From Chromera velia (Eukaryota): DNA of 51,120 nt. The translations under genes were made by a program, and so were the position numbers. The notes beneath the pieces are model-generated. The model was not told where the DNA came from. It ran no database searches and was given only the letters and a program-made list of their open reading frames with translations. Positions 5,666 through 51,039 of the stretch are shown piece by piece; the first letter of the stretch is position 1, and every line of letters starts with the position of its first letter. Where the stretch lies: NCBI GenBank assembly GCA_018398765.1, contig JAHBMJ010000317.1:1-51120 (forward strand), read 5' to 3'.

Positions 5666-7555
5666 AAGAGCACCTTTTAGAAGTACTTTTAAACTAACTT
5701 CCTCGTGAACTTATTATTCAACTCAAAGTTTTAAACATCTTTCAACTCTAGTTTCAACCTTAGTTCTAGTCCTAGTTGTTATTGTACGTTTGTCTCTACT
5801 AGTGTTTCTACTAGACAGAAAGAGGAGGATCGTCTCAGCGCTCAGCAGCAACAGAAACTCAGTGTAATGCTTGAGCAGTGTGAGGAGAACGGAGGCCAGA
5901 CAATTTGCGTTGCTGACCTAAGGCTTCTAAGTGATTACAAGGCCATCACGAAGATTAGGTAAATATGGTGGTCTTTACTCCTGCTTTCGCTTCCTTTGTT
6001 TTGTGTGTTCATTTCAGACGGTCCACGTATTCATCCGAGAGACGCTGTCAGTTAGATAGGCACAGACACAAAGACGCACACACATACACATACGTCTGTG
6101 GTGGTTCTCTCAGACACATCTGACGTCCTTCTTGCTTCCCTCCTCTGAGAAATGCCGGGTGATGGACTAGGTGATAGACCAACTGAGTGTGAGAGACGCG
6201 AGAGAGATAGAGGGAGTGACCCAGTCCGTCGTTTCACCATTCATGCTAATTAAAAAATGAATGAAATCTGCGTGTATGGCACTGCACGTAGCGACCATCG
6301 CAAAAGGGGATTATAGGGACGAAGGCGAGTAGGCGGGCAAAGGGAAAAGGGGGCTCTCTTTTGTCCTATGTAAAGAGTGACAAGAAAGATGGATGCATGG
6401 ATGCAGACAGAAGAGCAGACAGAGGAGAAGTTCTTTAACTGGCTCTTTGACGATATCTAGGATGATATACATTTTGAAGCTTTAGTCGAAGCTAGTTTTG
6501 GTCAATCCTTTTGAGCGTCTACCAAGCTAAAAATGAAACTGGGATCCTAGATATGAATCATATGATTCAAACTCTAGTTGAAGCTAGTCATTTAACCTTT
6601 ATTTTTTTTTACATATACAATAAAATTTTGAAAAAAAAAAAAAGAATAGACGTTTTCAGATTTTTTTTTTTTACCACTGTGCATCGCCTAGTATATATTT
6701 AGGCTTTCCCTAATATAATAATATAAATATAATATAATATAATATATTCTCTCTATAACATAGAGTATATAATCGAAAAGAAAAAAAATAACTAAACAAT
6801 TGATGAAAAAAAGTATAGACTAGAAAAGAAGTATAGCTATTGCCTCTGTCGATGCCTCCTCTACGAGCCCTTCTGCAGTTGTTTCTTCTCATGTGGCTTA
6901 GCGATAGTGGCTGCCCCTTCTTTTGCTGCTACAACCAGTCAGGCAAAGGCCGCAGAGACTAGCGCAGAGCAGGAAGAATGAGAATTTTTCAGGGATTTTG
7001 GGAGGCTTAGGGAGTCATAGGACTAACGACATGTGAATGCGTGTGTGCGGATTGATATAGGGTAATGCATTGACTTCTGTACATAGAGGGACAACGCCGC
7101 CAGCCAGGGTGTGCCTCCGTGGTATAAAGTGAGTGAAGGGCACTTACATAATCAGTACAGTCCATGCAATTATGCAGAGATGGGAAATGCAAGCTTGAAT
7201 TTAGCAGGTTGATTTGAAGCTAGCAAAAACGGTTTGAGACAGAATTTCAAAGGCAAAAGAAAGCCGACCGTTTCATTAGAAATATAATATAAATTATATA
7301 ATATAATATATAATGTAGAATAATGTTCATAATTAAGTTTGTATTACATTACATTAAATTATATTATATAAGGGTTTTGTCTGAAATATAATATATATTG
7401 AATCCGAGCCTAGAATAGAATATTAAGTTAAACTTATTAAAATGTGCATGTACATCAAAATTGTAATTAAGAGCCTAGTTAAAAGCTTTATACTTAAAAT
7501 TGTTGCCCCCTTCAAGACTGAGTGAATTTTTAAATAAATTAAATTTAAGTGAAAT

Positions 7556-8127
7556 TGTTATATGGTACTTTGCACTCAGTAGAAGGCTCTTGGATTCGGG
7601 GACGTTTGGATATAAAGTAAGGAAGAGCACAAAGGAGATCAGAGTTTGGAGATGGGGCAAAAGATGTGCAAGGTCCAAGCACGCATGCATGCCACCAGAA
7701 TTGGCGCGCGTTGTGGCCCTGTTACACTCGCGCGGCCCGCTTGCACACGCCCGCCGCTTGGAGGGTTGCGCCGCCTTACGCGCGACCACATTCTCACGTA
7801 CCTAAAATTGAATTCGACCATATTCTCACTGAAATTGAATTTGACTTCGATCGCGGCCTGTCGCTGATTTCGATCGCAGCCTGTTGCATGCAGCTGCGTG
7901 GCGAGCCAGAAATACCATGAAATGCCAACTTAAATTTGAGAAATCCAAAATCTTGAAATCGCGCGTTGTGAGATTAAAACTTAGTTCACCAACTCAGAGT
8001 TTCGATCAACATAATCGCATCACACCAAACTTCAACTTCAGACCTCTTTTTTATAGATTGCCTTCTCAAGAGTCAACTGACAATGAAGTTTTTATTGTAC
8101 TCCCTAGTGCCAGAGTACGACAGAACA
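7556..8127 (+). repeat. 5' LTR of the non-autonomous element
   Basis: Gap-free alignment to 8717-9288, about 90% identity by manual count; TG...CA termini. Confidence 0.93.
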
Positions 8128-8716
8128 CGTGGTGACGCCAGCGAAAGAACGTCCAAGGCTGAACCAAAGATTAACGGAGACGGCAAGACGCCATCTATAT
8201 GTTGAAGGTCCGTTCTGCTCTTGTTTACCCTCTCTCCACAGAGAGACAAAGAGATTTTCGTACCTCTGTGAAGGATGCTTCTGCTCCTCTGTCTTCTGTT
8301 CAGTGTTCCTGTATTTCTGGGTCTGCAGGTCTCACGATATCTTTAACAAATGGAATTCTGCATTCAACTTGGAAGAAGATTGACGGAATGATTTAGGTAT
8401 AGAGAAGAAGAAAAGAGACGAGACAAAGAGGAGACGGGGAATCTTGAGATCTGTCTGATAGTGTGTAGGGACAGCGCCTGACATACCATGTCACTGTATC
8501 AAGTCTTTCTCCACCATCATTCTCTCTCAACAGAAACTGACCATTCGTTTCAGGAAGAGCATACCAGGAACAGTGCTACTTGCAAGTGTATCTCAGAAGA
8601 GAAAAAGCAGGGGAGACGTGTTATGAGGACTTTCAGCTGCATGCTAAAGAAGAATGCAGCCCTAGAAGAAGTATAATTAGACGGCCGTGGAATGCCGTCT
8701 TGAGCAGAAGGGGCCA

Positions 8717-9288
8717 TGTTATATGGTACTTTACACTCAGTAGAAGGTTTTTGGATTCGGGGACGTTTGGACACAAAGTAAAGAAGAGCACAAAGGAGAT
8801 CAGAGTTTGGAGACGGGGCAAAAGATGTGAAAGGTCCAGGCATGCATGCATGCCACCAGAATTGGTGCGCGTCGCGGCCCTGTTACGCTCGCGCGGCCTG
8901 CCTGCATGCGCCCGCCGCTTGGAGGGTCACGCTGCCTTACGCGCGACCATATTCTCACGTACTTGAAATTGAATTCGATTATATTCTCACTGAAATTGAA
9001 TTTAACTTCGATCGCGGCATGTCGCTGATTTCGATCACGGCCTATCACATGCAGCTGCGTGGCGAGCCAGAAATGCCGTGAAATGCCAACTCAAATTTAA
9101 GAAATGCAAAACCTTGAAATCGCGTGTTATGAGATTAAAACTTGGTTCACCAACTCAGGGCTTCGATCAACACAATTGCATCGCACCAAACTTCAACTTC
9201 AGACTTCTTCTTTATAGATTGCTTTCTCAAGAGTTAACTGACAGTGAAGTTTCTATTGTACTCTCTAGCGCCAGAGTACGACAGAACA
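8717..9288 (+). repeat. 3' LTR of the non-autonomous element
   Basis: Gap-free alignment to 7556-8127; TG...CA termini; followed by TSD AAAT. Confidence 0.93.
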
Positions 9289-9833
9289 AAATTCGTGAAT
9301 TTATGTAAATTTCAACAGCTGAGTGAATTTACATGAATTTAAGTGAACTTATAAGTGAATTTTTAATTAATTTGAAATACATATTTCTAGGCATATTTAC
9401 TTATAAATTTAAATTAGCCTAGAAATTGGCTTTAAATTTATGAATTGTAAAATGAATTCAAGACTAGATCGAATGTTATTCAGACGGTCTAGAGCGTGCG
9501 TAAATTGCAGCGTAATTAATTCATGCTAGACCCTAGGCCAGACCTAGATATACTGGGAAGGCCCTAGTCTGAGGGCAGAACAAATCAATCAACTAATCAA
9601 TCAGTCAATCAATCAATCATGCTTTACCGGGCGGTGCAAACACATGCACCAGCTACCACCGTGATACCAATATGATTACCAAACGAGTTACCAAAGTTCA
9701 CCTACATTGGTAATCATAAAATAATTTGGAATATGATGGTGATGATGATGATGATTTGGGGTGTGCAGCACTGACTATATATTGTAAGAATCTAGGTAAG
9801 AATATAGCAGCAAACAAACGATGCATGGAGCAT

Positions 9834-22489: not shown

Positions 22490-23185
22490 ATGGATTTCGA
22501 CGGACCTGCTACAGGAGAGTTCGACGCTGCCCCAGGTGGATTTGACATCAGTGATGCTCTTGGGGGTTCTCCGGGAGGGGCGGGGGAGGACTCGCCCTCT
22601 CCGGATCAGCAGCAGGCTCCTGCTGCAGCTGACTGGGGTGCAATGGATGATATGATGGGGTTCACTGAACCCGCACAGCACGCAAATGGTCCGAGCAGCT
22701 ACGAACCCCCCGCACCAATGGAGGGGGTTGCAGCGGAAGAGGTGGAGAAAAACGGTACGACGCAGTATTTCAAGATGGACTCTGCGAATGATCAGAGCCC
22801 TGCAGGTGCAGAGGCAGCACAGAGGGCAGCAGAGAAGACGATTGAGGATGAGGAGAGGGAGAGGCAGGAGGCGTTGCTTCTCGAAAAATCTCATGCAGAG
22901 GAAAAACAACGCACAAAAGTGAGAGAAGAAGCAAATGAGTACAGGGAGAAGTGGTATTCTCAGAGACGGGAAGCAATTGAGAAACGAAAGAAAAGCAACA
23001 GGTTGGAGGAAGAGGAGACCTCCGCCTCCAGAGGGGAGGGCACGTCTTCAGACCCCACTGCTCCGTGCAACTGGGAGCGCACGCTCTCGTACATCGACTT
23101 CTCAAAGGAGAAGCACAACAGAGACACCTCGAGAATGAAGACGATTCTGTTCCAATTGAAGAGTGGGGGATTGCGGCGACCCTGA
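22490..23185 (+). CDS. CLC: Clathrin light chain
   Basis: Intronless 231-aa ORF with acidic N-terminus, coiled coil REEANEYREKWYSQRREAIEKRKKSNR, and hallmark C-terminus NWERTLSYIDF...RDTSRMKTILFQLK. Confidence 0.92.
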   Translation: MDFDGPATGEFDAAPGGFDISDALGGSPGGAGEDSPSPDQQQAPAAADWGAMDDMMGFTEPAQHANGPSSYEPPAPMEGVAAEEVEKNGTTQYFKMDSANDQSPAGAEAAQRAAEKTIEDEERERQEALLLEKSHAEEKQRTKVREEANEYREKWYSQRREAIEKRKKSNRLEEEETSASRGEGTSSDPTAPCNWERTLSYIDFSKEKHNRDTSRMKTILFQLKSGGLRRP

Positions 23186-23575: not shown

Positions 23576-25223
23576 GGGGGGGGGGGGTTGAGTTCATGTC
23601 TTGTGAATGCGTGCATGTATCTGCGTTCTGCCCTCCTTTCTTTGAATGCTCATTCTTTCCTTCCGTCTCTCCTTCTCCGAAAAAGATGTCGTCATACGGA
23701 GGGAGGGAGAGGGAAGGGGGCAAAAAGAAAAAAAGGGAGGGAGGGAGAGGAGGGGGTCTGTTGATCCACCCAGTCACTTCCTTCCTTCCCTTTTCCATCC
23801 ATCATCTTACCTAGGCGGTGTGTCACCGGAGTGTTTTGTTCGCGCATCTTTCGTTCTTTTCCTCCGTCGGTCTCCCCTTTGATGCCCGTTTCGTCTCCCT
23901 CCGTTTGTCTGTCTCAACATGAATGACACCACAGAGGATGCTGTGATGGTCCGATGGACGGCTCATTCTTCCCTCCCTTCCTATTTCGCCTTAATTTTCC
24001 ATAATTCCATTGTGCCTGCCCCCTTGCAACGCTTCTGGTTCCTTCCGGCACATGTACGCTCATTTGTGTGTGCAAGTTGGGGCTTCTCTCTCTCTCTCTC
24101 TGTCTTTTCCGGCAAGGAGGGAGGGAAACAAGAAGGGATAGAAGTCGCTTCACCACTCACTTTGTTTCTCTTACCTGTCCTGTCTCTATTCCACACCCAC
24201 CCCCCACTAACGAATTCCTTCTACAGGAGAAGCAAAGAAGCAGCGAGGATGAGCCTTCTTTCCTGCTTTTTCCGTGTCTGTGTGTTTCATTGACTGATTC
24301 GCTACACCTGTGCAGAGGAGGAAAGGGCCGAGTTACGCACCGTCATGCAGTATTTTCTCCCTCATGCTTGCCTTGTCTGTATTCTCTGCTACTCCACTCG
24401 GAAGAAGAAGGACACAAAGACAGACACAGACGGTTCGTTTCAAGGAAGCCCCTTAAAGAACGTGACAGGGGGTAGGTAGACAGACAGGCCGACAAGGCAC
24501 ACATGCACAGAGAGAGAGAGAGACCTTACTACACCCTTCCCCTTCCCCCCGTCTCCACAATGGCCCCACGATTTGAATCTGTTCGTTCCGCAGTCTTCCA
24601 ACGTCGTCCCCGTCCGTTCTGTGAGATTCTCCTCCTCTTCCCTCCTCCCACTCGAATCCAAGCAATGCAAACAGGCATGCCAGTAAGAGTGAGTGCGGGT
24701 GTGTGGGGAGGCTGCGTGTCCGTCCTTCCTTCCTTCTCCTTAAGGGAGAGAGTAAAAAGAGAAGGCAGGAAGGAAAGAACGCATCGATCAAGCCTGCCTG
24801 GAGACGGAGCCTCAATTCTCGCGTCAGCACGGAACTATTCAAACCCCACTCCGCTCTCCTGATCAATCCCCTTTCTGGTCAGATCAGATCCGACTTCAAG
24901 TCCTCAACTGACTTGCCACTGTGTTTCTTCGCCTCGGTGTTGACAGCCCTCCTCGGTGGGCTTTTCTTTCTATGAAACAGAGGTTTGCGGAGGGAAGGAG
25001 ATTGCTTAAGGGATTGCAATGCATCGATTGCATGGAAGCTCGGTGAACAGTCTGAACAGTCTTGCAAGGGTGTGATCTGGGAAAGTTTGTATACGTCTGT
25101 ATGAAAGTCTGCATGGATGCATGATCGATGTGCAGACACAGAAAGAGCTTCAGACTATAACTATAGGACCATGAGTTCGAAACTATATAAAGAATTAGAA
25201 TTCCTTTTTAATAATGTGCTGAC

Positions 25224-25460
25224 CTAGGCGCTGCACATAAGAAAAAAAAAGAAAAAAAAAAGTGGGAGAGCCCTAATTTTTTTTTCTTTTTTTTTTATTT
25301 CAAGCTAGTGCCTCCAAAAAAAAAAAAATCTCTTTCAACTCTCAAACTTACTTTTCTATATAAGATGTGTACATGACTTTTGACCTTAAAAAAAAAAAAA
25401 GAAAAGTACCTTGGGGAGGCCTATTTTTTTTTTTTTTTTTAATGTACATGCGGCACCTAG
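25224..25460. mobile_element. 237-bp MITE with CTAGG termini and 8-bp TSD
   Basis: TSD GTGCTGAC at 25216-25223 and 25461-25468; left end CTAGGCGCTGCACAT versus right-end reverse complement CTAGGTGCCGCATGT; interior of A/T homopolymers. Confidence 0.88.
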
Positions 25461-26020
25461 GTGCTGACAGTGTTGTATGCATAAATATCCTAGCCTGGAT
25501 CCTAGCCTAGATTGATATCAGCTTAGACACCTGTTTAATAGAACTTGAATCTTAGTAAATCCTAGTTTGAATCTAGACTAATAGATCTAGACTTGGATAT
25601 TAGTATGACAATCTGGCTTGAATCTGCATGTGGTGTCATAAACTTTACTAAATATTACAATCTAACGAATCGTAATGATTCTAATTATAAAGTTGTCGTA
25701 TAATGTCATATAATGTCCACACTGGCAGACTTTTCAAATTAATGTTGACAAATATTAATAAATTTACTAGTAACTTAGTGTTTTTCACGCAACTTTGCAC
25801 ACTCCCTGCAATACTCATACAACATAATACAACACTTGAACAATGGTTGTTTGTCTGGTTTAGTCTAGTTAAGGGGGTAATAAATAAATAAAAATAAATA
25901 AATAAAAAGTTTTCTTCTATACGTTTTCTTTTTTTCTTTCTGGTGTACGGCTTAGAACTCCTATATTTACTTCATAAACACTTTCTTTAAATAAACCTTC
26001 ATATGCGTATTTCGTTCAAT

Positions 26021-33598: not shown

Positions 33599-34286
33599 CC
33601 TGCCTGCCTGCCTATGTCTGCATGTTTGCATATCTCTCTGCCTTTCTACTATTCTACCAGTGTTATTTTCTCATTTTACGGGTCTGCCTATTCTGCCGTT
33701 TGACATATCTGCCTGCCTGCCTGCCTACCTACCTGTCTGCCTACATGCCCACCTGTCTGCGCCGGGTGATAGCTGGGGCATAAGAGCAATGAGTTGATGG
33801 CTGTGGGCAGAAAAAAACGAGAACCAAACATGAGAGAGAATACAGTGGGAAGAGGCCATACATTGAAATTAGAGCACTGAACTGAGAAGACTGAGATTTA
33901 ATGAGACTCGATGTGAGAGCTGACGTGAGCATGCCAAAAGGCTCGGCGAAGAGGCAATTTAGATGACAGTAGGAATGATGTGGCGTACAAAGGTGCAATA
34001 AAAACAGTGAAACAAAATAGGCAGGACAGTGGATTGTCATGTAAAAGCACGCAGTAAAACCGATTATTGTGGGATCTAGCGGTGACAAGATGAATAGAGA
34101 TTGATATATATATGTTGAGTGAATGCACGATCGAATATGAGTAACAGACCTGCATAAGTGAACATATTAGCGCAGTGAACTAACACGACCACATCATTTT
34201 GAGCAGTTGAAGAGCTGCAGGATACATGCAGACAATGAGGATCATGCTGGATCGTGCAATAACATAGGCAAGCGGGAAGGAGAGAA

Positions 34287-35212
34287 CAGGAAGGTGGGGG
34301 CACCTTTGTTCTTTTAGGGATCTGTCCAGCAGGGAGGAAGCTGAGGGCACCTTTGTTCTTTTAGAGATCTGTCCAGCAGGAAAGAAGCTGAGGGCATCTT
34401 TGTTCTTTCAAGGATCTGTTCAGCAGGAAGGAAGCTGGGAGCACTTTTATTCTTCTTAGGATCTGTCCAGCAGGAAGGAAGGTGGGGGCACCTTTGTTAT
34501 TTTTTGGATTTGTTCAGCAGGAAGGAAGGTAAGGCCACCTTTATTCTTTTTAGGGTCTGCTCAGCAGGAAGGAAGCTAGGGGCACCTTTGTTCGATTTCT
34601 GATCTGTCTTGCAGGAAGGAAGCTGGGAGCACCTTTGTTCGATTTCTGATCTGTCTTATAGGAAGCAAGGTGGGGGCACCTTTGTTCGATTTCTGATCTG
34701 TCTTGCAGGAAGGAAGATGGGGGCACCTTTGTGCTTTTACGATCTGTCCAGCAGGAAGGAAGGTGGGGGCACCTTTGTGCTTTTAGGGATCTGTCCAGTA
34801 GGAAGGCAGCTAGAGGCACCTTTGTTCTTTTTTAGATTTGTCCAGAAGGAAGGAAGGTGGGGGCACCTTTGTTCTTTTGGGGATGTGCGCAACAGAAAGA
34901 AAGGTAGGGGCACCTTTGTTCTTTTTAGGATCTGTCTAGCAGGAAAGAAGGTGGAAGCAGATTTGTTCTTTTACGGATCTGTCCAACAGGAAAGAAGGTG
35001 GGGGCACCTTTGTTCTTTTAGGGATCTGTCTAGCAGGAAGGAAGGTGGGGGCACCTTTGTTCTTTTTAGGGTCTGCTCAGCAGGAAAGAAGGTAGGGGCA
35101 CCTTCGTTCTTTTAGGGATCTGTCCAGCAGGAAGGAAGGTGGGGGCACCTTTGTTCTTTTCAGGATCTGTCCAGCAGGAAGGAGGCTGGGGGCACCTTTG
35201 TTCTTCTAGGAT
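34287..35212. repeat. 47-bp minisatellite, about 20 tandem copies
   Basis: Consensus approximately GCAGGAAGGAAGGTGGGGGCACCTTTGTTCTTTTAGGGATCTGTCCA; CACCTTTGTT recurs at ~47-bp period (34301, 34348 ... 34583, 34630, 34677). Confidence 0.97.
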
Positions 35213-35986
35213 ACCCCATCTTGAATTGACTTGACAATCGCATGACCTGTTGGTCTTTTTTTTGCTTTCTTCAAACCTTTTTATACCCATAATGCGTCTT
35301 GTTGCTCACGATACTAGATACGGTGCTAGCATATGTTATCTCAGGCTGTATAGCTCTACTTATAGCTCTAGTTTACTTTGGCTCTAGTCATTTTAACTAG
35401 ATTTGCTGATAAATTTTGTTTAGATAAGTGCATCTGAAGTTTTAAGTGTATCAAACTGAGTATCAAAGAGAGAAAAAAAACTAATTTTGAATGAAATTTA
35501 TCTTCAATTTTTGTTTTTTTGCCGTAAGAACGGCTAAGGTACTAGGCCTGTAACTAGGAGAAAAAAATCTTGGTAGGAAATTCTAAGCTCTAGTGTATAA
35601 GGTCTATAGCCTACGCTATAGTAAGAGCAAGAGAACATGCACTGTCATACAGAGTTTGTAGGCCCAGAAAACTATTTATGCATAATCCTGGGTATTAATC
35701 CACTAATATAAGTGATAAGTGATTTAGTGCTAAAAATTAGTGGTGCCGTTGAACATTATCGCCGTTTTGTCTTGTAGTACCTCTATAGAATTAAGTGCTG
35801 GAGAAGTTCAACGTCCACGCCGCTGTGTCATTCATGCAGTTGCTAGCAAAGTTGCATCATGTGAAAAAAACTAGAAAAAAAAATAACCCTTTTCAGTTAC
35901 TTTTTTTTCCTGTGATACGGCTTGCTAAAATTCAAGTCATCTAACACCTATATACAAATATTTGTTTTATTGTTTTTAAACATTTT

Positions 35987-37347: not shown

Positions 37348-40300
37348 TTATGCCGCAACACGTCTTTTCTTGTCGTGCCTCTTGACATCTTTCAACACAG
37401 GCGCGGAGGGCGCTTCGAGAGGGCCCCGCTTCAACTCGTCCAAAGGACGACGGACCCCCAGGGACCTTCTCAAATTCAAATACGCCAGTCGACCTGCGTA
37501 CCTCGAAAGAAGGGAAGCAACGGATCGTGATTGCCTCTTCCCACCTCCCCGCCTTTCTCCTGCGACCGCGGCTGAAGCGCGTTCGGAACCCTCTCCGACT
37601 CCTTCCCCGAAAAACGTTGAAAGTCCTCCTGCTTGTCCCACAAAAGAGAAGACTTCCTTCTTTGCCGTCTCTTTGACTGCACTTCTAGGGTCCAAAAGCG
37701 AGCCTCTAGAGGCCTCGAGTATCTTCTCCAAAAGAGCAGATAACTCGGCCTTGGACTGTGCGATTGCCAGCGCTGCCCCTGAGCCCTCTCGTCCCTTTCC
37801 ACTCTTCTTCACAGACTTGTGATTGCTTGCAGCCTTTTCTTTCTCTGCCTTCTTCTCTTTGTGTGCCTCCTGTCTTCTTGCCTTCGTGGCAAGTTCCCAC
37901 CTCTTGAATCCCATTCTCTTTGCTGCATCTGCCCTCACGCGCTCTCTCGATGCCCTCATCTGAGAGGACGAATGGGCAGAGTGGACATGGGAAGAGGGAG
38001 CAGCCTGCACAGACAGAGAGCCCGTAGGAGCAGTAGAGGCATCAGTCACTGTTCCTCCTCCTCCTCTGTGTCTTCTCCTCCTGCGTTCCCTGCCTCTGGT
38101 CACCGCTGAGTGAATGTCTTCCAACACACGCACAGAAGAGAAAGAGTGCAGACCCGATGCGGCAGCACTCAACAGAGCAGACTGCAGAACCGAGTCTGCC
38201 TTCTTTGAGGACTCTAAAGTGGCCAGATGAGCGTGTTCTCCTGACATCTCGCTTTCCATCGTCTCTGCCTGCAGGGACACGAATGCCTGCTCTTCTCCTA
38301 CTTCCTCTCCTTCCTCTGCATTCCCAACGCCGGCACTCGAGGAAGGAGCCAGGAAGCTCTGCTGCTGGTGTTGGTGTTGCGCGTCACCCCGTCTCTTCGC
38401 GCTCGCTTTCTTTTTCTCTACCGTTTCCTGCGGACAGCAAAGAGAAAGCGATTTCTCTGATTCTGAGGGAACGTCTGCTTATTCGCAAAAAAAAAAAAAA
38501 GGCGAACAAGAGAGAACACACATTTCGATGTTGACATTCGTGACGTTCCTGTTTTGGAGCAATTCGAATCAAAAACGAAGGAAGACAGACAGAAGACAGA
38601 ACGAACGAACGCACCTGAACACCCGCATCCTTCCTCTCAGCCCCCTGAAGAGCTCCCTGCAAAATAGTCTCTACTTCCCCTTCACTCCCGTCAGACCCAG
38701 AAGGAACCCCGGGGACTCTCCCTGCGCCCTCCATACCCTCCTCCTCCTCCTCAGGCTCAATTGGAGGGAAGGTCTCTGTTCCTTCGGGCCCGCTCATCTC
38801 GTCAGAGGGGTAGAAAGTCTCGAAGTCCTCGTAGTAGCACACCGCCGTGGGCTCGTACAGGGAGGCCACGAGGTAGAGGCCGCCCTTGGACGTGGAGGAA
38901 ATATCAAACAGGGTCAGTCTGCATGCATCAACAGAGGGGGAGAATATTGTACGGTGGTAGAGCCATTACGGTGTTCCTTGGAAATCGTTTTGACTTCAGG
39001 GGAACGTTAGAGCGCACAACAGATTGATGCCGGGACATCAAGTCTTGGTCTGAAAAACCATTCATGCATACATGTCAACTTCAATCGGGGTGCCGAGCAC
39101 AGATGAAAATTGGAAAGCGAAGATGCCGCAGTGAGGCGGCTTGAGAATCAGTCAAAGTGCAGCTTTAAAAGATGGTACCGATGTTTGCAAGACACTACAT
39201 CTCCACTCACAAAGCATCCACTGAGAGAGGCAAAGAGTGAGAGACAGAGAGAGAGAGAGAGACTGACGGAGGAGTAGGAGGGCCAAACTCGGGGGGCCCG
39301 TCCATCACTTCTGTCGTGTATTCCTCTGGAGGTGGGGGAGGCATCTCTGCTTCCTCTGGGAGGTAGCCGGGCTCAGTCTCCAACTCTGTCTCTGGTTCTA
39401 CTTCTGTGATGGTCGTCGTTGTGGTTGTGGTTGTGGTCGGCTCTTGGGTAGTTGTAGTTGTTGTGGTGGTGGTGGAGACGGGTGGGACTGTGGTTGTCTC
39501 AACAAGAATCGGTTCTGTTGTTGTGGAAATCGGAAGTGGTTCCAGTGTGGTGGAAGCCTCCGTGGTTGTGGTTGTGGTCGTGGTCGTTGGTTCAGTCGTG
39601 GTGGTAGAAAGGAGAGGCACTACTGATGGGTAAGTAGCTGAGGCTTGGTCAGTGTCTGATGGTAAGTTCTCCCCGTCCACTGCCTGTGTTTCTGGGGTGC
39701 TTGTGCTGGCGTGTGAGCGCACAGTAGCTGTCTGAGAGGAAGAGGGGTTTGTGGAGTGTTGAGGCGATGACACATCTGAGGATTGTTCTGAGGCTGGCGT
39801 GTCGACAGAGAGGCTTGTAGGGATCTCCTCGGGAATTGTATCAGATCCAATGACTTTCTGGTGTGAGGGGGGGAGGGGTTCACTGCCGGTTGTGGTGTCT
39901 TTTGAATCTGGGCTGAGACTCGGGCTGTTTGCATTTGTTGGGGAAGACAATTTGCTTTTGTCCTCTTTCAATTCCCTTGGGGGCTCTGGAGCTGTTGTCT
40001 TTGGAGTTGTTTCTGTTGTGACTTCCTCCTCGGATTCTGTTTCTCCTGTAGCATCTACTGTCACAGAGAGTTTCGAAGAAGAAGAAGAAGAAGAAGACGA
40101 CTGTGCGTTCTCAGGTTGGTTGTCCTCTTCCTCTTCTTCCTCTTCCTCATCTGACGCCTCCTCTCCATCCTGAGAACCTTGAGAAGAGGAAGGGGACTCA
40201 TCCGTCTCCCGCTCTTCTTCTGAAGGGAGGGCGTGAGTGTCTTCAGAGGGCACTCCCCTCTGTCGAAGCTCTGTGAAGGCTGATGCAGTGGAAGCCAAGG

Positions 40301-42054
40301 GAGTCTCAGAGACCGGAAGGCTAGACAGGATTGAAGGAGAAGAAGGAGCGGAGCCTTTGGAGGCGACCCCTAGTTTTTCTGAAGCTTCAGCAGCAGAGGG
40401 TATGAGCGAGATGACGCTGTCGGTGTGATGCTGCTGCTGTTGTTTACTCACTGCACTCACAGCCGCATTCGGAATGAAAGGCACGTGTTGCCCACCCATC
40501 TGGCCAGAGGGCGACCTCATCTCTTTTGAAGCCATGGAAGGTGCCTGGGAGTCCATAGAACCCCCCCCCATCTCTGAGGAGATTGAGGGCGGCCGCAGCT
40601 GCTGCAGTGTCTCCTCCAATTCCACGGGGCCCCAGTTCGTCGTGTTGAGGTTCTGTCGGGGATTCTTGCTGGAGCCGTACAGCTGCAAGCAGGCAGGTGT
40701 GTGTTGTATTTCAGGCAAGTGGCGTCGATGTCACGCGATTAAATCATAAGATATGTAGTGTCATTGACAAGTAATTATTCAAATGACGAGAGTTATTGTC
40801 TCTGCCAAAGTCCACAAGGAGACGAAATCCATGAAAGGCACATATTTTGCTGATCGCATTTCCACTTGGGAAGGGAAAGGTTATCACAATTAAGACTGGA
40901 CGGGCAGAGAACCCACTTTGATTGCAATTTTCTGTCTTGCCCCGGTGGGTGCCGTGAGGATTTCGAAGAGGTCGTTAAGCATGTCGGCTGTGTTGCGGGA
41001 CTTCATCAGGAACTCCAGCATCTCCTGCATGCTTGCGGTGGGTGGACAGACAACATATCTATCGATCGATGTATCAATTGCTCCTGTCCCCCTGCACTTA
41101 TGCCTCTATGCTGGGGGTTGCCGGGAAATGCATCAAAGTTCCACCGAGCACCTCCGTAGAAACAGTGAAGCGGAGATCTAAAAGAAATATGCTCCTCCCG
41201 TCCTAATCGGAGGTACGTTCGATAAGAAAAAGGAACTTGCCACAAAAGAAAATGCAGAAAAAATGTTTGGGCGCATCAAACGTTATTTCTCTCTCACCCC
41301 CCCATGGACGAACGAACCATTTCTTCCTCAAAGCAGAGACTGTGCGTCCAGATTCTCCTCCACCACCTGCACACGCACGTGCACGACAATGTGACGAAGA
41401 TTCTCAAAGGTATCGAGAGAGGTTTCTCAAAAGGGAGCTCCTGTACAAATGAAAAGAGGGAGATCCCGGGCGCTTTCAAATACCAACAGTCACACAGACA
41501 AAGAAACCTTCCTACGCATACCGTTCTGACCTTCCCCTTCTCCCGACAGACCTCTCAAAATGGTCCCCGAGTGTCATGTCGATAGGGCTGTTCGTCATGG
41601 CAACCTCCTGAAAGGAAAGCAGCAATGGTAGAGGGAAGACATCAAGCAAGGCACAATAAAGGGGGGTTCATGTCAAGATGAGCAAGCCAAGATCTCTCTT
41701 GAGAGGGGCCAGACACTCTGTATTAGTTGAAACAAATCACTTCTTTCTGTCCATGTCCACTCAGACTCCGATGCAAGAAAACCAGAACCCCTAAGCAGGT
41801 CACTGATGTTCCGTGAGTTTCCGTTGATTGTCGTGATTTCAATCATCTTCCTACAAGAAAAAATTTTGCTCCAACTGACTGACGGCCTTGAGACGGAACA
41901 CGTCCTCTTCAGACAGTCCCCCCTCTCCCTCTGAGTCCACTCCTCTCCACTTCTTCCTGAGACTCCCGAGGAGATATTCGATCTCTCCCTCCACGCGGTC
42001 GGGGTCAACAGGGTCGTCGCCTCCTCTGTCGGGGCCCTGCATGAGAGAGAGAGG

Positions 42055-42120
<66 letters not shown>

Positions 42121-45100
42121 AAGAGGTCAAACTCGAAATGCCGCGAAAAGAAGAGAAACGAGATGCGCCAAGGGAACAGAGTGTGAGCACGCCGAGAAAG
42201 ATTGTGAGAAACATAAGAAAGAGAGACTGCGTCAAGTGACGGGCTGAAATCAAAGTAGACAAGCAGACGCAATTAATAAATTCGATTGACATGCAACATT
42301 TACACGAGCCACACAACTTGGAGTCTGGACAGGAAAAAAAGAAGAGCTGAGCATGGAGCCATATAATTTCGTCAAGAAAGCCGACGGCACGGGGGCCGAA
42401 GGAAAGACCTGTACGACGACCCGAAGTTCCGAGACATACATTTACTTTGTGTATGAAAAAGAATTCTGTATGAACGTAAATGTATGGGCCGACCTGTACG
42501 ATGACCCGAAGTTCCGAGACAGGGTAAGTCTCCCCAGCCATCCCGCTGACAACATACCCCAACTGCTTCTCTGTCCTCAGGTACTCAAACACGGGAGTGC
42601 TCAGCATCGACCCGATCTGCGAACAGATACAAGTGAAATATTCTTCTTTTGTTCAAAATGGTTCGACGAAAAACGGATCTCCCTCGGCTTTCCACAATTT
42701 GAACGAACGCTTTGTATTTATGTGGGTGAGGAAACACATCAAACAGCTTGTGCTTTTCTCCACCGATGCACCCTGCCTGCTCTTCCTTTGCTCCTTCGTC
42801 TCTCTCTGTCTATCTCGTTCTTTGTCTGACCATTTCAATCACTGCCTTCTGTGCTCTGACCATTTTAATCACTGCCTTCTGTGCGATGTCCGCAATGCCC
42901 CACTGGTAGACTGCCAGTGTGGCATGGTCCAGGTCTCCTGGAATGGGGTTGGGAATGCGGACGTCCAGAGGGGGGGAGGCGTCTAGGGCCTGCAGGGAAG
43001 TGAGTAGGGAATGGCATTGGTGTCAGGACAAAGAGATGAAAAGTGGCGAGCAGCTTTCCATCGAGAGCGACAAAAAGTGGGTGATCAGGCGAAAGGTGTC
43101 GGGAGGGGCAGTTCGGAAGATCAGAAGAGAATCTCACCAAGTCAGAGGAGACTGAAGACACGGATGTGCAAGAGCGTGAAAAAAAACATTAAACTTATTG
43201 CTCGACCGCGCACTACCCTAATGGCCGAACAACCTTTTCCCTTGTATTTAGGCTTTCTGGCATGTGAACCGCAAACTAGCTGGGACCGTTTAGTTTGTAT
43301 TTCACCTCCCTTGTCCCATCTGACTGACAAAGAACTGCACCGCTTCCGACTGTGCAATTGGCACATGATGGATGGCCCTGGAGGCTTCCTCTGCAAGTCT
43401 GACGGCGTCGTCTGATCCGATGTCCCCAATCATCAGGGCGTCAATGAACGAGAGGGGGCAGATCTCTCTCACAAACTTCACGTAGGTGCTGAAGGAGGAG
43501 GCCTCCGGGTCCAGCAGGAGCTGCAGACAAGGGGACAAACACTCAGTTTTTTATACAGATGATGAGCCTCATATCAGGTCCTGCAGTGGAGAGTGCATCG
43601 ACAAAAGCTGTGTCCGGTAAATCACAATGACTTTTTCCGCGTCAAAGAGTGTTCGCAAATGGCGTAAATGTCCCGGAAAGCTAAGGAAAATTGCGGGCCG
43701 ATCTCTGTACTTGTAACTCTATCCCAGGCAGAAAGAGAGTCCTCTCTTGCAAGTGATTCAGAGGACCTTTTTCAGAAACGCTGTGTGTTGGGTCTGGACG
43801 AGTCAACGCAAACGTGTTTGTCTGCGCACCTCTTTCTTCTCTGTGTCCGTGAAGACGTTAGGTCTCTCAACCGTCTGGAGTGCCTTCATTGCGAGTTGGT
43901 AGGGCTGACTCTCGCTGTAGTCGGCCAGGTCAATGAGCAGCTGCATGCGAAGGAAAGAGAAGGAGGGGAAGGGGGTGGGATGGAAAAGTCGTGAGAGACG
44001 AAGAGGAAAAGGCAGAAGACGAAGGAGACATAAAGAGAGATAGAACAGGGGGGACATCGCGAAGTGAAACGGCTCTGTACACTTGGGGCAGGGTCCAATT
44101 GGGGAAAGGGCTCTCCCAAAACTCAATTGGGTTCAGGTGCACATTTGGGAGCCCTGATATTCATAGCACATGGCGAGCAGAAATGCAGGTGGACAGGCAG
44201 GCTTCCAATGCTTCAATGGCGTTGCACACACGCACAAAAAGCTGTTCACCCAAAGCCGCTCACATGCACTTTCGATCGATCCTTCTGACCTCCTCTCTGA
44301 CAAGTTCAAAGACTTTCTGAGTCTCCGTAATGGTGTCCTTTGCCTTCGCCTTTTCCTCGACGAAGCTGCTCTCTCCTCCCTGAGGTGCCAGAATCTCTTC
44401 ATCTGTCTGACCCCTCATGATGGGATCAAACCCAAATTCCTTCAGAGTCTTCACAAACACGTGCTCGAAGTGTTCACTCCAAGCCTGAAAGAGAAGAAAA
44501 ACAAGGAGGGGTTCTTCGTGTTGAAAGGGAATAAAGAAGTGATCGATGAAGGGCGAAAATTGGGCAGCATGCCCAAATCTTATACTTCTATGATCAAAGA
44601 ATTTCTTTTTTCTTCCAGAAGGGTGCTGCATGGGCCATTTCTCTATCGTCCTTTCTGCTTGTCTGCCCTCTCTAAGAGGGATAGAAACGAATAGACAGTC
44701 TCATTGAAGATGTATGTAGCTGGTCCACGCTTTGATAAAGCTACACACTTGATGTCTCCCCCCCTCCCTTGAACTGACCGCCACTCTGATGGAGAAGCAC
44801 CCTGCCTCAAACTCTACTGCCACCTCCGTAGGGGTCCCTGTGAACTCCGCGAGCTTCCTGTCCAGGAGACGCTCTATCACCAGGGCATGGAGCTCTCCCA
44901 TCAGGGCAGACCTGCAAAGAGGGAGGGAGCAGGTAGGGTGCAAAATGAAAAACAACTTCCAGATTGATGCCCCAAACAGAAGAGACAGTACTGTTCCTTG
45001 TAGGAGCAAAGAGCACACCCTTTTTCAGCTCCTCTCCCATCATGTCCCAACAGCTGAATGTGCACCAACCTCACATATTCGAAACATCAGTTTCACAACA

Positions 45101-48100
45101 CATGCAGTCCGAAAAAGGAGCGTCTCGACGCGACTGACAGAGGCGTCTGTTCCTTCTGCGTGAGACGCAGAATGATGGAGCTGTGGACCCTCGGCTCGTT
45201 GAAGGGTCCCCCGAAGCCCCCCTCCTCCACCACACCCGCACCTGGCACAGGGCCCTTCCACCAGACAGAGAGGCCCGCTGTGTGAAGGACAGGGCAAGGG
45301 GGGGAGAGGCGATTCTGGGGACAGGCGTCGTCCTCTACGCGGGGGGTGACTGCAGAGAGACGGGTCGGGACATTCGTCAAGGGCCCCGGCATGACCACCT
45401 CAGGGGTGAGATGGTGCTGCACACCGTCGGGAGGGGCCCCGGTAAGGATCTGGCTGTCTGCCAATCCGATCTCTCTGTACTTCACATCGTAATGGTCGAA
45501 GTGGGTCCAGGGGGCCAGGGGGGTGTCTGAGGCCGAGGCGTTGGCGTGGGGGTTGATGAGGAAGACGTTGGCGTTGACCTCCCTTATTCTGGACATGACG
45601 TCAGTGACTAGGGAGGCGTTGTAGGAGTCTAGATGAAGGAGGGAATTCGCAGTGAAGGCCATTTGAGGAGGGAAGATCAAAAGGTTTCCAGAAGCCTCGG
45701 GAAGATCTGACATGATGCTGGGAGGGAGTCCTGTCCTCTCTGCGATGCGCATCTCTGCGTCTGTCATGTTGACGACTGATTGGAGGAAGGCCAAGGTTGG
45801 GTCTGTCTCTGCGTCTGCGATCCTCTCCCTCCACTCGAGGATGAACGCGTTGAGAGTGTCCAGAATCTCGCGGTGGCTTTTGATGCCCTGAAGAAACAGA
45901 GTAAAGAGTAGAGAGTAGAGTGGTCAAGGAAAAATGAAACCGAACATGACAAAATCTGATGCAGTTGGGCACATAAGAAGTCAACTTCAATCTGCGTGGT
46001 TCTGGGACACTGGCTGGATTAGTTTGCTGAAGAGGCGGAGTGAATTGTGCTGAAACTGCTGCACACAACCAGACACAAACTTCCTCTGACTTTCGCTCGC
46101 CGACATGTTCAACAAACTACCCAGAAGCGTCCGATCGACTTGGAACAAGATGTGCCGCATGGATAAGCGAACAAAAAAAGACAAACACTGACTACCTGCT
46201 TCACCCACTAGCTGTCTTACTGACCGCCTCGGTCAATCCGATGGACACGTAGAAGAGAGTTGCTGCTGAGGTTGTGTCGTCATCAGCAACGACGTCAAAT
46301 GCGAGGCCTGTAGTGGAATGGATCGGTGGGAGGAGGGAAGGGAAAAACCAGACAACAGAACAAGTGAGGAAAAAAGAGCAAGCTGGGTGCAAGAAGAAGG
46401 GAGGAAATTGGAGGAGGGAAAGCAACTGTGAAGTGGAATGTCTCTGCATGGGAATCAACTGATGACTCTGTCTGAGTTTGCTCGAGGAAGCCAGACGACA
46501 TTTCTGCATGATGCATGGAAGCGCTGCATGACGAGCGGACCTTTCTTCTGCAGGGTGTCGATCAGGCCTCCTGCCCCAGGGTGAGTGAGGAGATGAGTGA
46601 TGTACGTCAGGGGCCTCCAGGGGGATTCCTGTACAGAAAGAAACGGAGTGAGGGGGTGGACGCGTAGACGAATACATAAATGGCTTGGGGGTATTGGAAA
46701 TCCGAAGACATTCGTCGGAAGATAGGAATTGAAAAGGCAAAAGAACGAAGAAAACAGAAAATTGGAAGACGGGTGGGTTGACTGCGGCTTTCTTCCCTTT
46801 CCAGGATCTACCCTGATGGTTTTCTCTTCTGTCGTCTAAAGATTCACCTTCAGAAGCGACGGGAGGGCGTACATAACGGTCAGAGTCGGTTGCCAGCCGT
46901 ATTTGGCCTCCACCTCAACAAACTTTCCTGCATTCGGGTAAGACGCAATAGAAGAGAAGGGCTCGGATGTGCATGAAAAACAACCCGGAAGGGCCTGTTA
47001 GTGGCAGCACCGTCTGTCAGACTGGGTTTTTGACCGAGGCAAGATCAGTTTTGAAAGAAGGATGGGTTGGTTCCGCATGTTCGTTCTAGCTCCTCATATG
47101 GATAGATGGAGAATGCATCATCGAACTTCGATCAACCCCCTCAGACAGACAGATACCATGCATTTCTTCCTCTCAGTCTTTTGCCCCCCTTCTGCCGAGG
47201 AAATCTCTGCCGTGTCCATTCAATAGCCGTTCCAGACTTTTTAATTCGTTTTTCCCAACCCTACATGCATCTGCCTACTCAGGGTCGTGTATTTGCTTTC
47301 ATACAGAATTCTTTTTCAGGGAGCAAATGAATTCTGTATGAAAGCAAATGCATGCATTTTCCCAACCCTACATGCATCTATCTGCCTACCCAGGGTAGTC
47401 CGGCTGAATGGCAGGGGGTCAGTCGGGTTGACGGGATCCTGGCAGACTCCAGATCGGATGGTGCCGAAGACCCTCTCGATGATCTCCCGTAACTCGTTCA
47501 TCGGACGGTCGTTCCTGCATCATGCACATGCAGGTACAAGCAGAATGAATCACGGAAATGCATGCAAGTACACACACGTATACACACAGGTAGACCGACA
47601 AAGTACTGAGCGTGTGAACACACCAGCGAGATGCTCCATTATTTTTTGTACGGCAAAGGGGTAATACGTTATGAAGAAAGGAGGGCTGACACCGAGTAAG
47701 GAAAGCGGCGAGACAAGGAAGAGGGATGACCGTGGAAGGGTGTGACAGAGAGACAGAGAGAGAAAGAAAGACTGAAACGGAGAGAGCAGCAGAAGAAAGT
47801 GAAAGTTGAAGAGAGAGGCACATAGCACGAAGTTGAGAGCAGACGCACAGACCTTATGACCAGGCTCATTCTGTCAGCACAGTAGTACTGATCATGGAAC
47901 TGGTGGAGTCTCTGGGGAACCTCCGTACCCTGTATGGGGGCGGGGGGTAGATAGGGGGAGGGAGGGAGGGAGGGACGGAGGGAGGGAGATGAGACACCAT
48001 GCACGCATGGCAAGGCACCACAAGGAAGGATGAATTCAATGAACAGAATAAAGTCGAGCCTCCGGAAGACTTGTGTTGTTTTTTGTGCATGTGTCTCTTC

Positions 48101-49673
48101 GCTCGCTCGTATGTTGCATGTTTCATCTTCACTTTGTTGACCCAATCAGATGACTTAATTTCTTCTCACCAGAATTCTTCCTTCTAAAATTATTCAGAGG
48201 ACCATCATGCTGCGGTTAATTCTTTCTGTCCTACACTGACTGATTGACCGACCATCTCTTTCGGCTGAATCATCAGAGACTGCAGTGAGCCTGTGGAGAA
48301 TTTTCTCATCGGACTCCCTGGGTGTCCGTCTGCTGGTTGGGCCAGGCTCTGAGAGAGTGCTGATATCAGCCTTCTCTGAGAGGGCATGTTCTTTTTGTGC
48401 TCTGAGTCCACTGCGTAGACCTCTCTCTCATAGGCCTCAGGAAGCATCAGAGGCTCGTTGATCATGTCGGCCAAGCGTTCCAGACTGGCCTCAAGGTCAT
48501 CCTCCGTGTTTGCGTCTCCATCTGCAGTCCCACTCGCAGGGGTGCCGTCTCCTTCTGTCTCCTCTGTGTCTGGTGGGGAAGAGGGGAGAACGGACAACTG
48601 TCCGAAGTAGGTCGTCTGCTCGGCTGTCGTAAACGCGTTGTCGGAGCCTCCGTGGGTGCTCATCCAGTCGTCGAGACCTGACATGGAGTTGAAACGCCGG
48701 GATCCGAGAAAGAGCTGCAGGAGGAGGGAGACACACATCGATCGACACAGCATGAAGAGCTACTCACTGCAGGGTTATGTACACACAATCAAATGGCAGC
48801 TAGAACACGGAATCATAACGTACATTGAAGTTTGATTGATCATCGAAAGGGCCTTTGGGGCAGAATTTAGCGTGCACTGTCTTGTGAAAAAGTGCTCTCG
48901 AACATTGCTGCGGTGCAAGTGACTGTACTTCTGAGGAGCGCAGGGGGAGATATACATATAGCATGTCTGAAAGCATTGCCCACCATGTGTTCAGTCAAGT
49001 GAGCGAGTCCTTGAAGGTCTTCAGGGTCGCTGCAGAAAGAGAGAGAAAGACAGAGGGTGAGGGGGAGGGAGGACAAACGAGAGAGATGAGAGAATGAGAG
49101 GCTGAAAATCCACACAACGAGAGAAGCTTCTTCGCTCAATTCCCACACACACACACATGCACATGGTGTCTCTCCCCTTCATGCATGGGTCATGTAGCAT
49201 CCACCTGACTGTACACCACGAAAACACTATTCTTTTGTGGATGAAACATTGTGAAAACTAATACATTGGGGCTAATGTGACCTCTTTACCTCAGTGCACA
49301 GATGCGAAATGATACATTGTCGATGCATGCATGCTGGAGCTTGAGAGCATGGAAAATGACTGACCTACCTGTAGTAACCAACGCCCACTGTGAGAGAGTA
49401 TGAGAGGTCAGGAGATGTGGGGTCCTCAATGGTCAGAACCTTCAGACCGTTGGCGAGGACGAAGCATTCATACTCTGCAAAGTCCCCTGAAGGCTTCTCT
49501 ATGTGAAATGGACCTGAAGACACGCAGCTGCTGCTGGTGCCCACCAGGCTTCTTCTGCCTAGCGCAAACTCCCCACGACCTTTCTCGAGTTGTGTTGCCA
49601 CACTGATACCCAGAGAACAAATGCACAACAAAGAGGAAAGCCCCCACAAGGGAGGAATGGCAGAACTGGGCAT
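37348..49673 (-). CDS. Secreted M16A insulinase-like zinc metallopeptidase with long Thr/Ser/Glu/Pro-rich C-terminal extension; many exons
   Basis: Exon 1 (49673-49369): signal peptide + EKPSGDFAEYECFVLANGLKVL...VGVGYY. Exon 2 (49029-48984): DPEDLQGLAHLTEHM (inverted zinc motif HxxEH). Exon 3 (48714-48253): LFLGS...GGSDNAFT...EREVYAVDSEHKKN...KFSTGSLQSL. Later FHDQYYCADRMSLVI, FEYLRTEKQLGYVV, RQKIAIK|LYGS, a mucin-like exon at ~40682-39266, and terminal exons to the stop at 37348. Linkage of the last exons is inferred from splice-site-like boundaries. Confidence 0.9.
42043..42118. repeat. (GA)n microsatellite in an intron; similar GA/CA/CT tracts at 11822-11877, 26291-26340, 29150-29229, 51043-51120
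   Basis: Direct reading. Confidence 0.95.
42435..42486. mobile_element. Putative miniature hairpin element, copy 1 (degenerate), between 31-bp direct repeats
   Basis: 11-bp terminal inverted repeat CATACATTTAC/GTAAATGTATG; shares the 21-mer TGAAAAAGAATTCTGTATGAA with the reverse strand of copy 2; flanked by repeats 42406-42436 and 42491-42521. Confidence 0.7.
47286..47356. mobile_element. Putative miniature hairpin element, copy 2, between 36/40-bp direct repeats
   Basis: 26-bp inverted arms at 47286-47311 and 47329-47354 (24/26 match) with a 17-bp loop; flanked by repeats 47250-47285 and 47357-47396. Confidence 0.75.
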
Positions 49674-51039
49674 GATCACCAACTCAGAGAGGGACTGTTA
49701 GACTGGAGGCTTGAATCGTCTCTCTTCTGTTCTGTTCGATTCCCCTAAGTTTGTTATGACAAAAGCATTCGACCTCCTTTCAATGAGATCAGTCGATGAC
49801 GAGACCCACACAAGATCGTGGAGCTTTGGGCCTTCGTTCAGATTGAGTTTTCGTGTCGCGAGCTTGAATGCCTTCAAGGTCGGTCAAAGAATTACGCTGT
49901 ATCGCCTCGGGGGGCAGCTCAGCTCTGCTGAGATCAGCCGAGAGGCCCTGAGATCGCACGCACTCGCATAACGCATTTTTTCATTTTCGGGGGGGNGGGG
50001 GGGGGGGGGTCGCTTCTTTCTCCGTCTGTCACGGTGTCGCCCGAATTCCAAAATGTGCCCCTCAAGCAACTCGCACGGAGCCGCGATCGCATTACTTCGG
50101 ACATGCGTGCCCCTCAAGTAACTCGCACGGAGTTGCAAGTGCATTCGCGCGGTCCCGAAAAGCATACTTCGTGCGCGTTGCCGTGGCCCAAGCCCCCGAT
50201 GGTGTGCATCAATCAAATTTGCAGACCCCCTAAAGGGCCCCCCGAGGCACTCACCCAACTGGTTGGGTGTATCTCGTACATATATAGAGCTTCATGAAAT
50301 TTAGCTGCCATGCATGCACTCGCGTCACTGGGAGTGCACCCCAGATCTGACGTAAGCAAGCTTGCGAACGGCCCCGGAAAGCAAGAAAAATTACAACTAG
50401 TTCACCATGATGCAGTGCCACGCTATATGTAGCTGATTGAAGCCACGCAGAAAGTTGCACTCACATACAGTCAGGGCTAGACTCAGGTAGAGTCAGGGTG
50501 GGGGCATTACTAGGCGTTACCTGGCATTATCCAGACGTATGAAAGATTTAATATGTTTTTCTTAAAAAATATGGTAGAATGAAGACTAAATTTAAGAAAA
50601 TTTAAATAAATCTGTGACATAATTAATTTTCTTATATGAACTATCCTTTATTTTTTGTATAAAAAGCCGAAAAAATGTTTATAAATTAATTAAATGGATC
50701 TGAAATTTACAGGGCTAAATCTATAAACAAATTTATATACAAATTTTATAACTTGTTATATCATTGACTTAGTAAAAAATTTAATGCAAAGACTTAATCA
50801 ATAAATAATTCTTTAATGCTTACTATGGTTTGAACATTGGTTTCATTTATTATGTGGCAATCTTCAAAGTATGTTCACTGCGTTAAGTTCATCTGTTTCA
50901 AGATCAACGACCATCATCTCATTGCTCTTGATTTGTAGACAAAGATCCATAAAACGCGGGACGGAAGGAGAGAAAGAAGGGGTCTCTCTCTCCCCCGTTC
51001 TCGCTTTCTCTCTCTCTTTCTTTCTCTCTTTCTCTATGT

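Follow-up and report, generated by a model that had tools for sequence, protein, structure and literature searches.

Two short inverted-repeat elements lying in longer introns of an insulinase-like gene of Chromera velia belong to a real multi-copy family of hairpin elements, with unusually long target duplications clustered at splice donors. We are confident that this is a mobile family whose insertion brings the long duplication with it. With distinctly less assurance, we lean toward reading the first of the two (element A) as a non-autonomous terminal-inverted-repeat (TIR) DNA transposon, moved in trans by a putative DDE-type transposase attacking the two strands ~30–36 bp apart. The window, to which all coordinates refer, is the whole stretch of 51,120 nucleotides that was analysed (contig JAHBMJ010000317.1); the features on which the argument turns are these:

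41880..49673, minus strand: examined part of the host gene, an M16 insulinase-like metallopeptidase; the gene extends past 41880
42494..42616, minus strand: exon carrying the target of A, 41 codons (IGSMLS...VSELRVIVQ), with the motif LRTEKQLGYVV and a match to PF22456 (E = 2.9e-8)
42486..42521, minus strand: upstream target copy of A, the 28 bp at the exon end together with intron +1 to +8, GTCGGCCC; its GT (42493-42492) is the donor seen in RNA
42437..42485, no strand: core of element A, 49 bp, short family form
42393..42436, minus strand: downstream (decoy) target copy of A, 44 bp, carrying a single substitution and 8 additional bp directly after the second GT (42408-42407)
42825..42884, minus strand: insert-free 30-bp tandem duplication at a neighbouring donor, exon -24 to intron +6; the upstream donor, at 42860, is the one used
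47357..47396, minus strand: upstream target copy of B, 40 bp with a 4-bp slip, containing 7 exon bases and the donor GT (47389-47388) seen in RNA
47286..47356, no strand: element B, a 71-bp long hairpin with 28-bp arms, 93% complementary
47250..47285, minus strand: downstream (decoy) target copy of B, 36 bp

A preliminary description of this DNA had reported near-identical repeats at 42406-42436 and 42491-42521 with a single difference, and these two 31-mers do agree at 30 of their 31 bases. From the GGGCC preceding both copies it had supposed an original of ~36 bp; the length held, with the amendment that one copy has an 8-bp gap, i.e., 36 bp (42486-42521) align to 44 bp (42393-42436) with one 8-bp indel. 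The duplicated span runs from exon position -28 to intron position +8. Because donors of the host gene are mostly GTCAG-like, we take the upstream GTCGGC as the probable original, with a later gain of the 8 bp in the decoy copy. The duplicated exon end VSELRVIVQ|GT, with its decoy exon end and second donor, was also correctly read: the exon occupies 42616-42494 on the minus strand and is followed by the GT at 42493-42492 and, beyond the element, by that at 42408-42407. Use of the decoy donor is computed to add 85 nt to the message, with a frameshift.

Between the two target copies lies an insert that had been put at ~50 bp with 11-bp inverted ends. We find a core of 49 bp, or 52 bp when the shared junction bases are counted (TG and C are common to the junctions), and perfect 11-bp inverted ends, CATACATTTAC, at 42435-42445 and 42476-42486, which extend no further. 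Element A is a short form, with one arm complete and the other reduced to its outer 11 bp, and its fold is weak (-6.7 kcal/mol; z -2.9/-4.0). The likeness of its arm to the element at 47.3 kb was confirmed, at 23 of 26 positions against 47329-47354, with the 21-mer TTCATACAGAATTCTTTTTCA exact in the other arm; in 200 order-3 Markov sequences of window length, exact matches to the insert peaked at 10–14 bp and never reached 21. We rejected the idea that the shared letters are a common low-complexity motif unrelated to duplications: the motif occurs at only two places in the window, and two further copies of it have long flanking duplications. A profile search of the window with three arms (nhmmer) returned A and B only.

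Element B is a long hairpin (fold z -9.8/-8.6), and the duplication flanking it also covers a donor, spanning -7 to +29 with copies of 36 and 40 bp. The earlier argument that the same insert in two unrelated targets means mobility survives in its second half, the family being found in hundreds of contigs; its first half needs correction, since A is a short form and 47286-47356 a long hairpin, and their sequences differ.

An unbiased scan of the window for duplications (periods 15–300, complex sequence, a 47-bp minisatellite left out) gave five: 86-159, that at A, 42825-42884, that at B, and 50055-50132. All three of the in-gene duplications of at least 30 bp (A, B and the insert-free 30-mer) cover a splice donor. 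Under a null in which duplications fall evenly over the intron and donor positions of 11 introns, with acceptor-side loss ignored, chance coverage is 0.10–0.12 per duplication (~0.11) and 0.001–0.002 for all three.

Of the other two duplications found by the scan, that at 86-159 is an insert-free 37-bp tandem duplication with 2 mismatches, in the size class of the element's duplications, near the start of a retrotransposon-like region; that at 50055-50132, upstream of the insulinase gene, has period 52 with 26 bp matched. Long plus-strand ORFs at 1144-5397, broken by stops and without a Pfam match at E 0.01, resemble, by eye, copia gag, protease, integrase and RT/RNase H, and we take them to be a divergent LTR element. 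Two diverged repeat copies with internal 23- and 32-bp repeats lie ~1.16 kb apart at 7479-8135 and 8630-9308, and the 47-bp minisatellite (~20 units) at 34225-35275.

Three of the seven pieces of minus-strand exon scanned gave Pfam matches (PF00675, PF16187 and PF22456, i.e., Peptidase_M16, M16_M and PqqF-like_C_4), and contigs of the runs X3 and X4 join 10 GT-AG introns within 42130-47560. A plus-strand reading with a donor GACAGG|GTAAGT at 42523 was rejected, because Pfam and all 10 RNA joints place the gene on the minus strand. The status of X3–X6 as RNA is a prediction, with which the spliced contigs agree. In this gene (43329-46225, minus strand) the donors are mostly GTCAG(T/A), as against the usual GTRAGT. 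Downstream of its exons, at 37351-40730 on the same strand, stand long low-complexity ORFs rich in Ser, Thr and Glu, without a Pfam match, possibly a mucin-like tail of the insulinase gene. A protein search for relatives of the large insulinase exon gave no matches among 2624 candidates, and the sole match of another protein search was the window's own clathrin light chain (22490-23185, plus strand, single exon, PF01086); no orthologue without the duplication was obtained from these searches.

At all three duplicated donors the exon, as represented in RNA contigs, stops at the upstream donor copy. The joint at B is 46926-47389 and that at the insert-free duplication 42616-42861 (X3 and X4). 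At A, where the preliminary description had proposed checking which donor is used, the contigs, which come from another strain, end the exon at the first donor: the spliced piece stops at 42493 and its record continues for 976 letters off the compared stretch, without the insert. The acceptor of this intron lies past a long (AG)n tract, outside the compared stretch, and the joint at A is thus seen only as an exon end. Differences from the window at 8 listed exon sites mark these runs as another strain, perhaps one without the insertions; what they reveal is the form of the mRNA rather than the choice of donor on the window allele. Since the RNA contigs end each exon at the upstream donor, the insertions at this gene look neutral, as far as RNA from a different strain shows.

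For a survey of the family, contigs of two DNA runs were aligned to 42130-47560 at 85% likeness, which placed 349 and 342 contigs. Partial fits running on into unlike flanks numbered 103 and 98, a few of them being the locus itself or other repeats. Mean summed depth in the two element bins was 3732/3707 against 30 elsewhere, and in the second run 1983/2100 against 17, or ~120x baseline in these bins only; summed depth is not copy number, and a fair reading is tens to a few hundred loci. The introns at 42676-42857 and 43995-44028 contain other repeated sequences, as raised contig depth and loose ends there show.

Family members take two forms, short (as A) and a long hairpin with a variable loop (as B, 47286-47356). 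In long forms both arms are present, with 7–26 nt of other letters between them, and six contigs per run stop at 47329 and then read CATGCAC, which is the short form as in A. One record (X6 record 29) has additional GAATTCTGTATG repeats, hinting at longer, modular family members. By consensus of the loose-end rows listed (24 of 168 and 24 of 37), the outer end of the family is about (G)TGCATRCATTTRC. The outer G/C is absent in B and in two single flanks, and each of the four measured copies has at least one end that falls short of the family end (G)TGCATRCATTT. Beside the arm, the loose-end consensus reads GTAAGT in 6 contigs and GTGAGT in 5 (among the rows listed), and a 12-contig consensus behind 42486 is donor-like no further than CAC.

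The family also appears in RNA-type runs (32, 69, 20 and 20 contigs). It matched no Rfam family at gathering score, with one sub-threshold match to a generic hairpin, and a structured-RNA gene was rejected on this ground. Exact-pattern scans gave no matches in viral, metagenome and prokaryote genome contigs, and neither these scans nor the rest of the survey turned up an autonomous element or a transposase; no empty allele (target without the element) was seen.

Two further copies speak to the length of the duplication. In copy C the same 24 letters, ending AAGGTAGGT, stand before and behind the element within a 133-nt contig (X11 record 1, X12 record 9), and the repeat ends donor-like, CACAAG|GTAGGT. 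The two records have equal length and different phase, in agreement with a cycle of period 103, and contig depth is raised ~6x and 4x (186 against a baseline of 30 in X1, 66 against 17 in X2); together these indicate that copy C is a tandem array of the element plus ~30 bp of host DNA, the origin of the repeat as a target duplication being assumed. In copy D (X5 record 19; 37 letters before the element, 31 behind) the flanks are identical at 13 of 19 positions and compatible at the other 6, an agreement with a chance of ~2e-4 over 25 offsets. The flank before the element is a two-contig consensus, and the 6 letters fit an apparent tie-break to the alphabetically first letter, a rule that held at 30 of 30 places of another two-contig row of which one member is known (X6, 47352). 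From the geometry of k=31 contigs its duplication would be ~33 bp; no clear donor was found at copy D, nor at several single flanks. That is, all four measurable copies have duplications of 30–36 bp (about 30, 33, 36 and 36), A and B directly and C and D indirectly. The two-sided records X11 record 5 and X6 records 29 and 31 could not show a duplication of such length.

The family combines conserved, symmetrical ends with dispersal in many copies and with direct repeats particular to each locus, the traces expected of non-autonomous cut-and-paste transposition. The strands would be cut 3 to 3.5 helical turns apart, and gap filling between the cuts would yield the duplication; junction overlaps of 1–3 bp and lost terminal bases may reflect imprecise joining by the host at one end or at both, or later decay. 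For the link to donors, survival is the simplest account, and it would need insertion to be biased toward exons or exon (nucleosome) edges; introner-type elements are reported to favour genes, GC-rich DNA and linkers (available portion of PMC9860276). Insertions within exons or across acceptors would presumably be purged, and the neutral ones would be those whose upstream copy preserves the complete exon with its donor up to about +6. Survivors would then gather at donors because only such insertions leave the exon intact, and the right edges at +8, +4 to +6 and +6 would be explained by this need for the donor through about +6. The insert-free duplications could be excision footprints or deletions between repeats, and the tandem array at copy C could have arisen by unequal exchange between repeats.

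Counting against a transposase are the unequal lengths of the duplications, the ragged ends, and the two insert-free tandem duplications of 30–37 bp in the window, evidence that duplications of this kind can occur in its absence. With no transposase found, ragged ends and four measurable copies, capture at staggered breaks is a live rival, which we rate as possible but clearly the weaker reading: host repair would yield tandem duplications of 30–37 bp at staggered breaks (by paired nicks, fill-in and end joining) and abundant hairpin DNA or cDNA would sometimes be captured, the family itself being mobile by an ordinary route. The two duplications without insert in the window (30 and 37 bp) fit this reading, though they could equally be footprints, as do the ragged ends with their 1–3 bp junction overlaps; fill-in of 3' overhangs is a described origin of small tandem duplications in the excerpted text of PMC8355091. 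Yet both filled duplications in the window contain the same family, near-whole each time, as do C and D (which were found via the element and so are no test of filler choice), and random capture should give varied fillers. Origin as a SINE or other non-LTR retro-element seems improbable. Some non-LTR clades make long duplications, and the long, variable duplications and ragged ends seen here, a T5 run within the arm and the presence of the family in RNA-type runs could be taken in that sense; but those RNA-run contigs may equally be pre-mRNA or DNA, both ends are conserved inverted repeats, and A and B have no poly(A) or simple-repeat tail and no tRNA- or snRNA-like Rfam match.

We give least credence to an ordinary MITE, inserted with a short target duplication or none, at which the 30–36 bp duplication arose later by replication slippage on the extruded hairpin. 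Hairpins promote slippage and copy C is amplified in tandem, but to place a flank copy beyond the element two slips would have to be coordinated, the weakly folding A has a duplication as long as that of B (36 bp), and A, B and X11 record 5 have no visible short duplication. The clustering at donors might itself reflect targeting to 5' splice sites through coupling to splicing or transcription (R-loop, snRNP tethering) instead of selective filtering; this view, which we think quite unlikely, is compatible with a transposase. A donor or donor-like site is covered in A, B, C and the insert-free duplication, and the GTAAGT and GTGAGT beside the arm point the same way; copy D and several single flanks, however, are without a donor, and selection predicts the same edge at +6 to +8. 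In the boldest form of the transposon reading, which we regard as speculative and rather unlikely, a new eukaryotic transposase with a ~35-bp staggered cut, a rung above IS481EU, would be aimed at exon ends, and its passengers of 50–100 bp would clone donors genome-wide, leave footprints of 30–37 bp, seed minisatellites of exon end plus donor, and make perfectly spliced introns at exonic AG|GT without a splice signal of their own.

Structurally, DNA transposon superfamilies are told apart above all by the length of the target duplication, for which the literature searched gives ~25 bp as the eukaryotic maximum; a high-copy family at 30–36 bp would indicate a new transposase geometry. That literature (subscription papers and Repbase lay outside its scope) gave no account of the hairpin family or of 30–36 bp duplications for a eukaryotic TIR element. 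A value of 25–44 bp for the duplications of Arnold-type Mutator elements found no confirmation in the literature searched; were it true, the novelty would be less. Standard MITE finders would miss the hairpin family, because they expect short duplications. A duplication long enough to hold a whole donor could directly duplicate donors, shift exon edges and, by the known model of tandem duplication at AG|GT, add introns; with hundreds of natural cases in a single genome, such models would become testable.

Among known systems, MITEs are similar in build, being likewise short and non-coding, with inverted ends (11 bp perfect in A, 28-bp arms in B) and many dispersed copies, in introns. They differ in the duplication, which in MITEs is usually 2–15 bp, short and fixed at intact ends, while here it is about 30, 33, 36 and 36 bp at ragged ends; the hairpin family measures only 50–110 bp, so the duplication reaches up to 70% of the element's length. 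MULE duplications are given as 8–11 bp in the excerpt of PMC6446971. The window also holds, at 25216-25468, a 237-bp TIR element (25224-25460, ends CTAGG..CCTAG) with internal A/T-run hairpins and a perfect 8-bp duplication, GTGCTGAC (25216-25223/25461-25468), which looks like an ordinary hAT-type MITE. From SINEs and other non-LTR elements A and B differ in having no RNA-gene-derived head and no poly(A) or repeat tail.

Direct repeats of IS1549 and IS1634, DDE elements of bacteria, spread over 8–514 bp with no established mechanism in the accessible part of PMC2266710, compared with a narrow 30–36 bp in our four copies. The donor-disrupting stwintrons of Hypoxylaceae are likewise repeated symmetrical elements at donors, but in the portion of PMC8469720 at hand they are without flanking duplication, unlike the hairpin family. 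At A an initial splice could in principle take out the 85-nt GT..AG piece and restore exon|GT; the pyrimidine tract of the decoy AG is weak (0.55, compared with 0.55–0.95 for 12 real acceptors). Introners are likewise non-autonomous TIR elements at exon-intron boundaries, for which splice sites are obtainable from the target duplication; they are, however, the intron itself and have duplications of 3–9 bp or 3–5 nt (as excerpted from PMC9860276, PMC7789003, PMC11282704 and PMC12130899), whereas A and B sit within longer existing introns, the remaining sequence of which is unrelated to them, and duplicate an existing donor.

Long duplications are also known from the non-autonomous IS481EU elements and the prokaryotic IS1202 group, with which the hairpin family shares TIRs of <50 bp, long duplications in helical-turn sizes, hundreds of copies and, in relatives, TG..CA-type ends. 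In the available text of PMC10045372, the duplications of IS481EU, reported in parabasalids only, are 4, 15 or 25 bp long, different lengths occurring in a single family, and those of the IS1202 group reach 24–29 bp; the steps are of one helical turn (about 10 bp) and have no known mechanism. The ends differ, TNT..AYA in IS481EU as against ragged (G)TGC..GCA(C) here, where the loose-end consensus (G)TGCATRCA (among the rows listed) makes the exact termini approximate, and so does the length, 30–36 bp as against about 4, 15 and 25; by analogy, 35–36 bp would be the next step of the IS481EU ladder.
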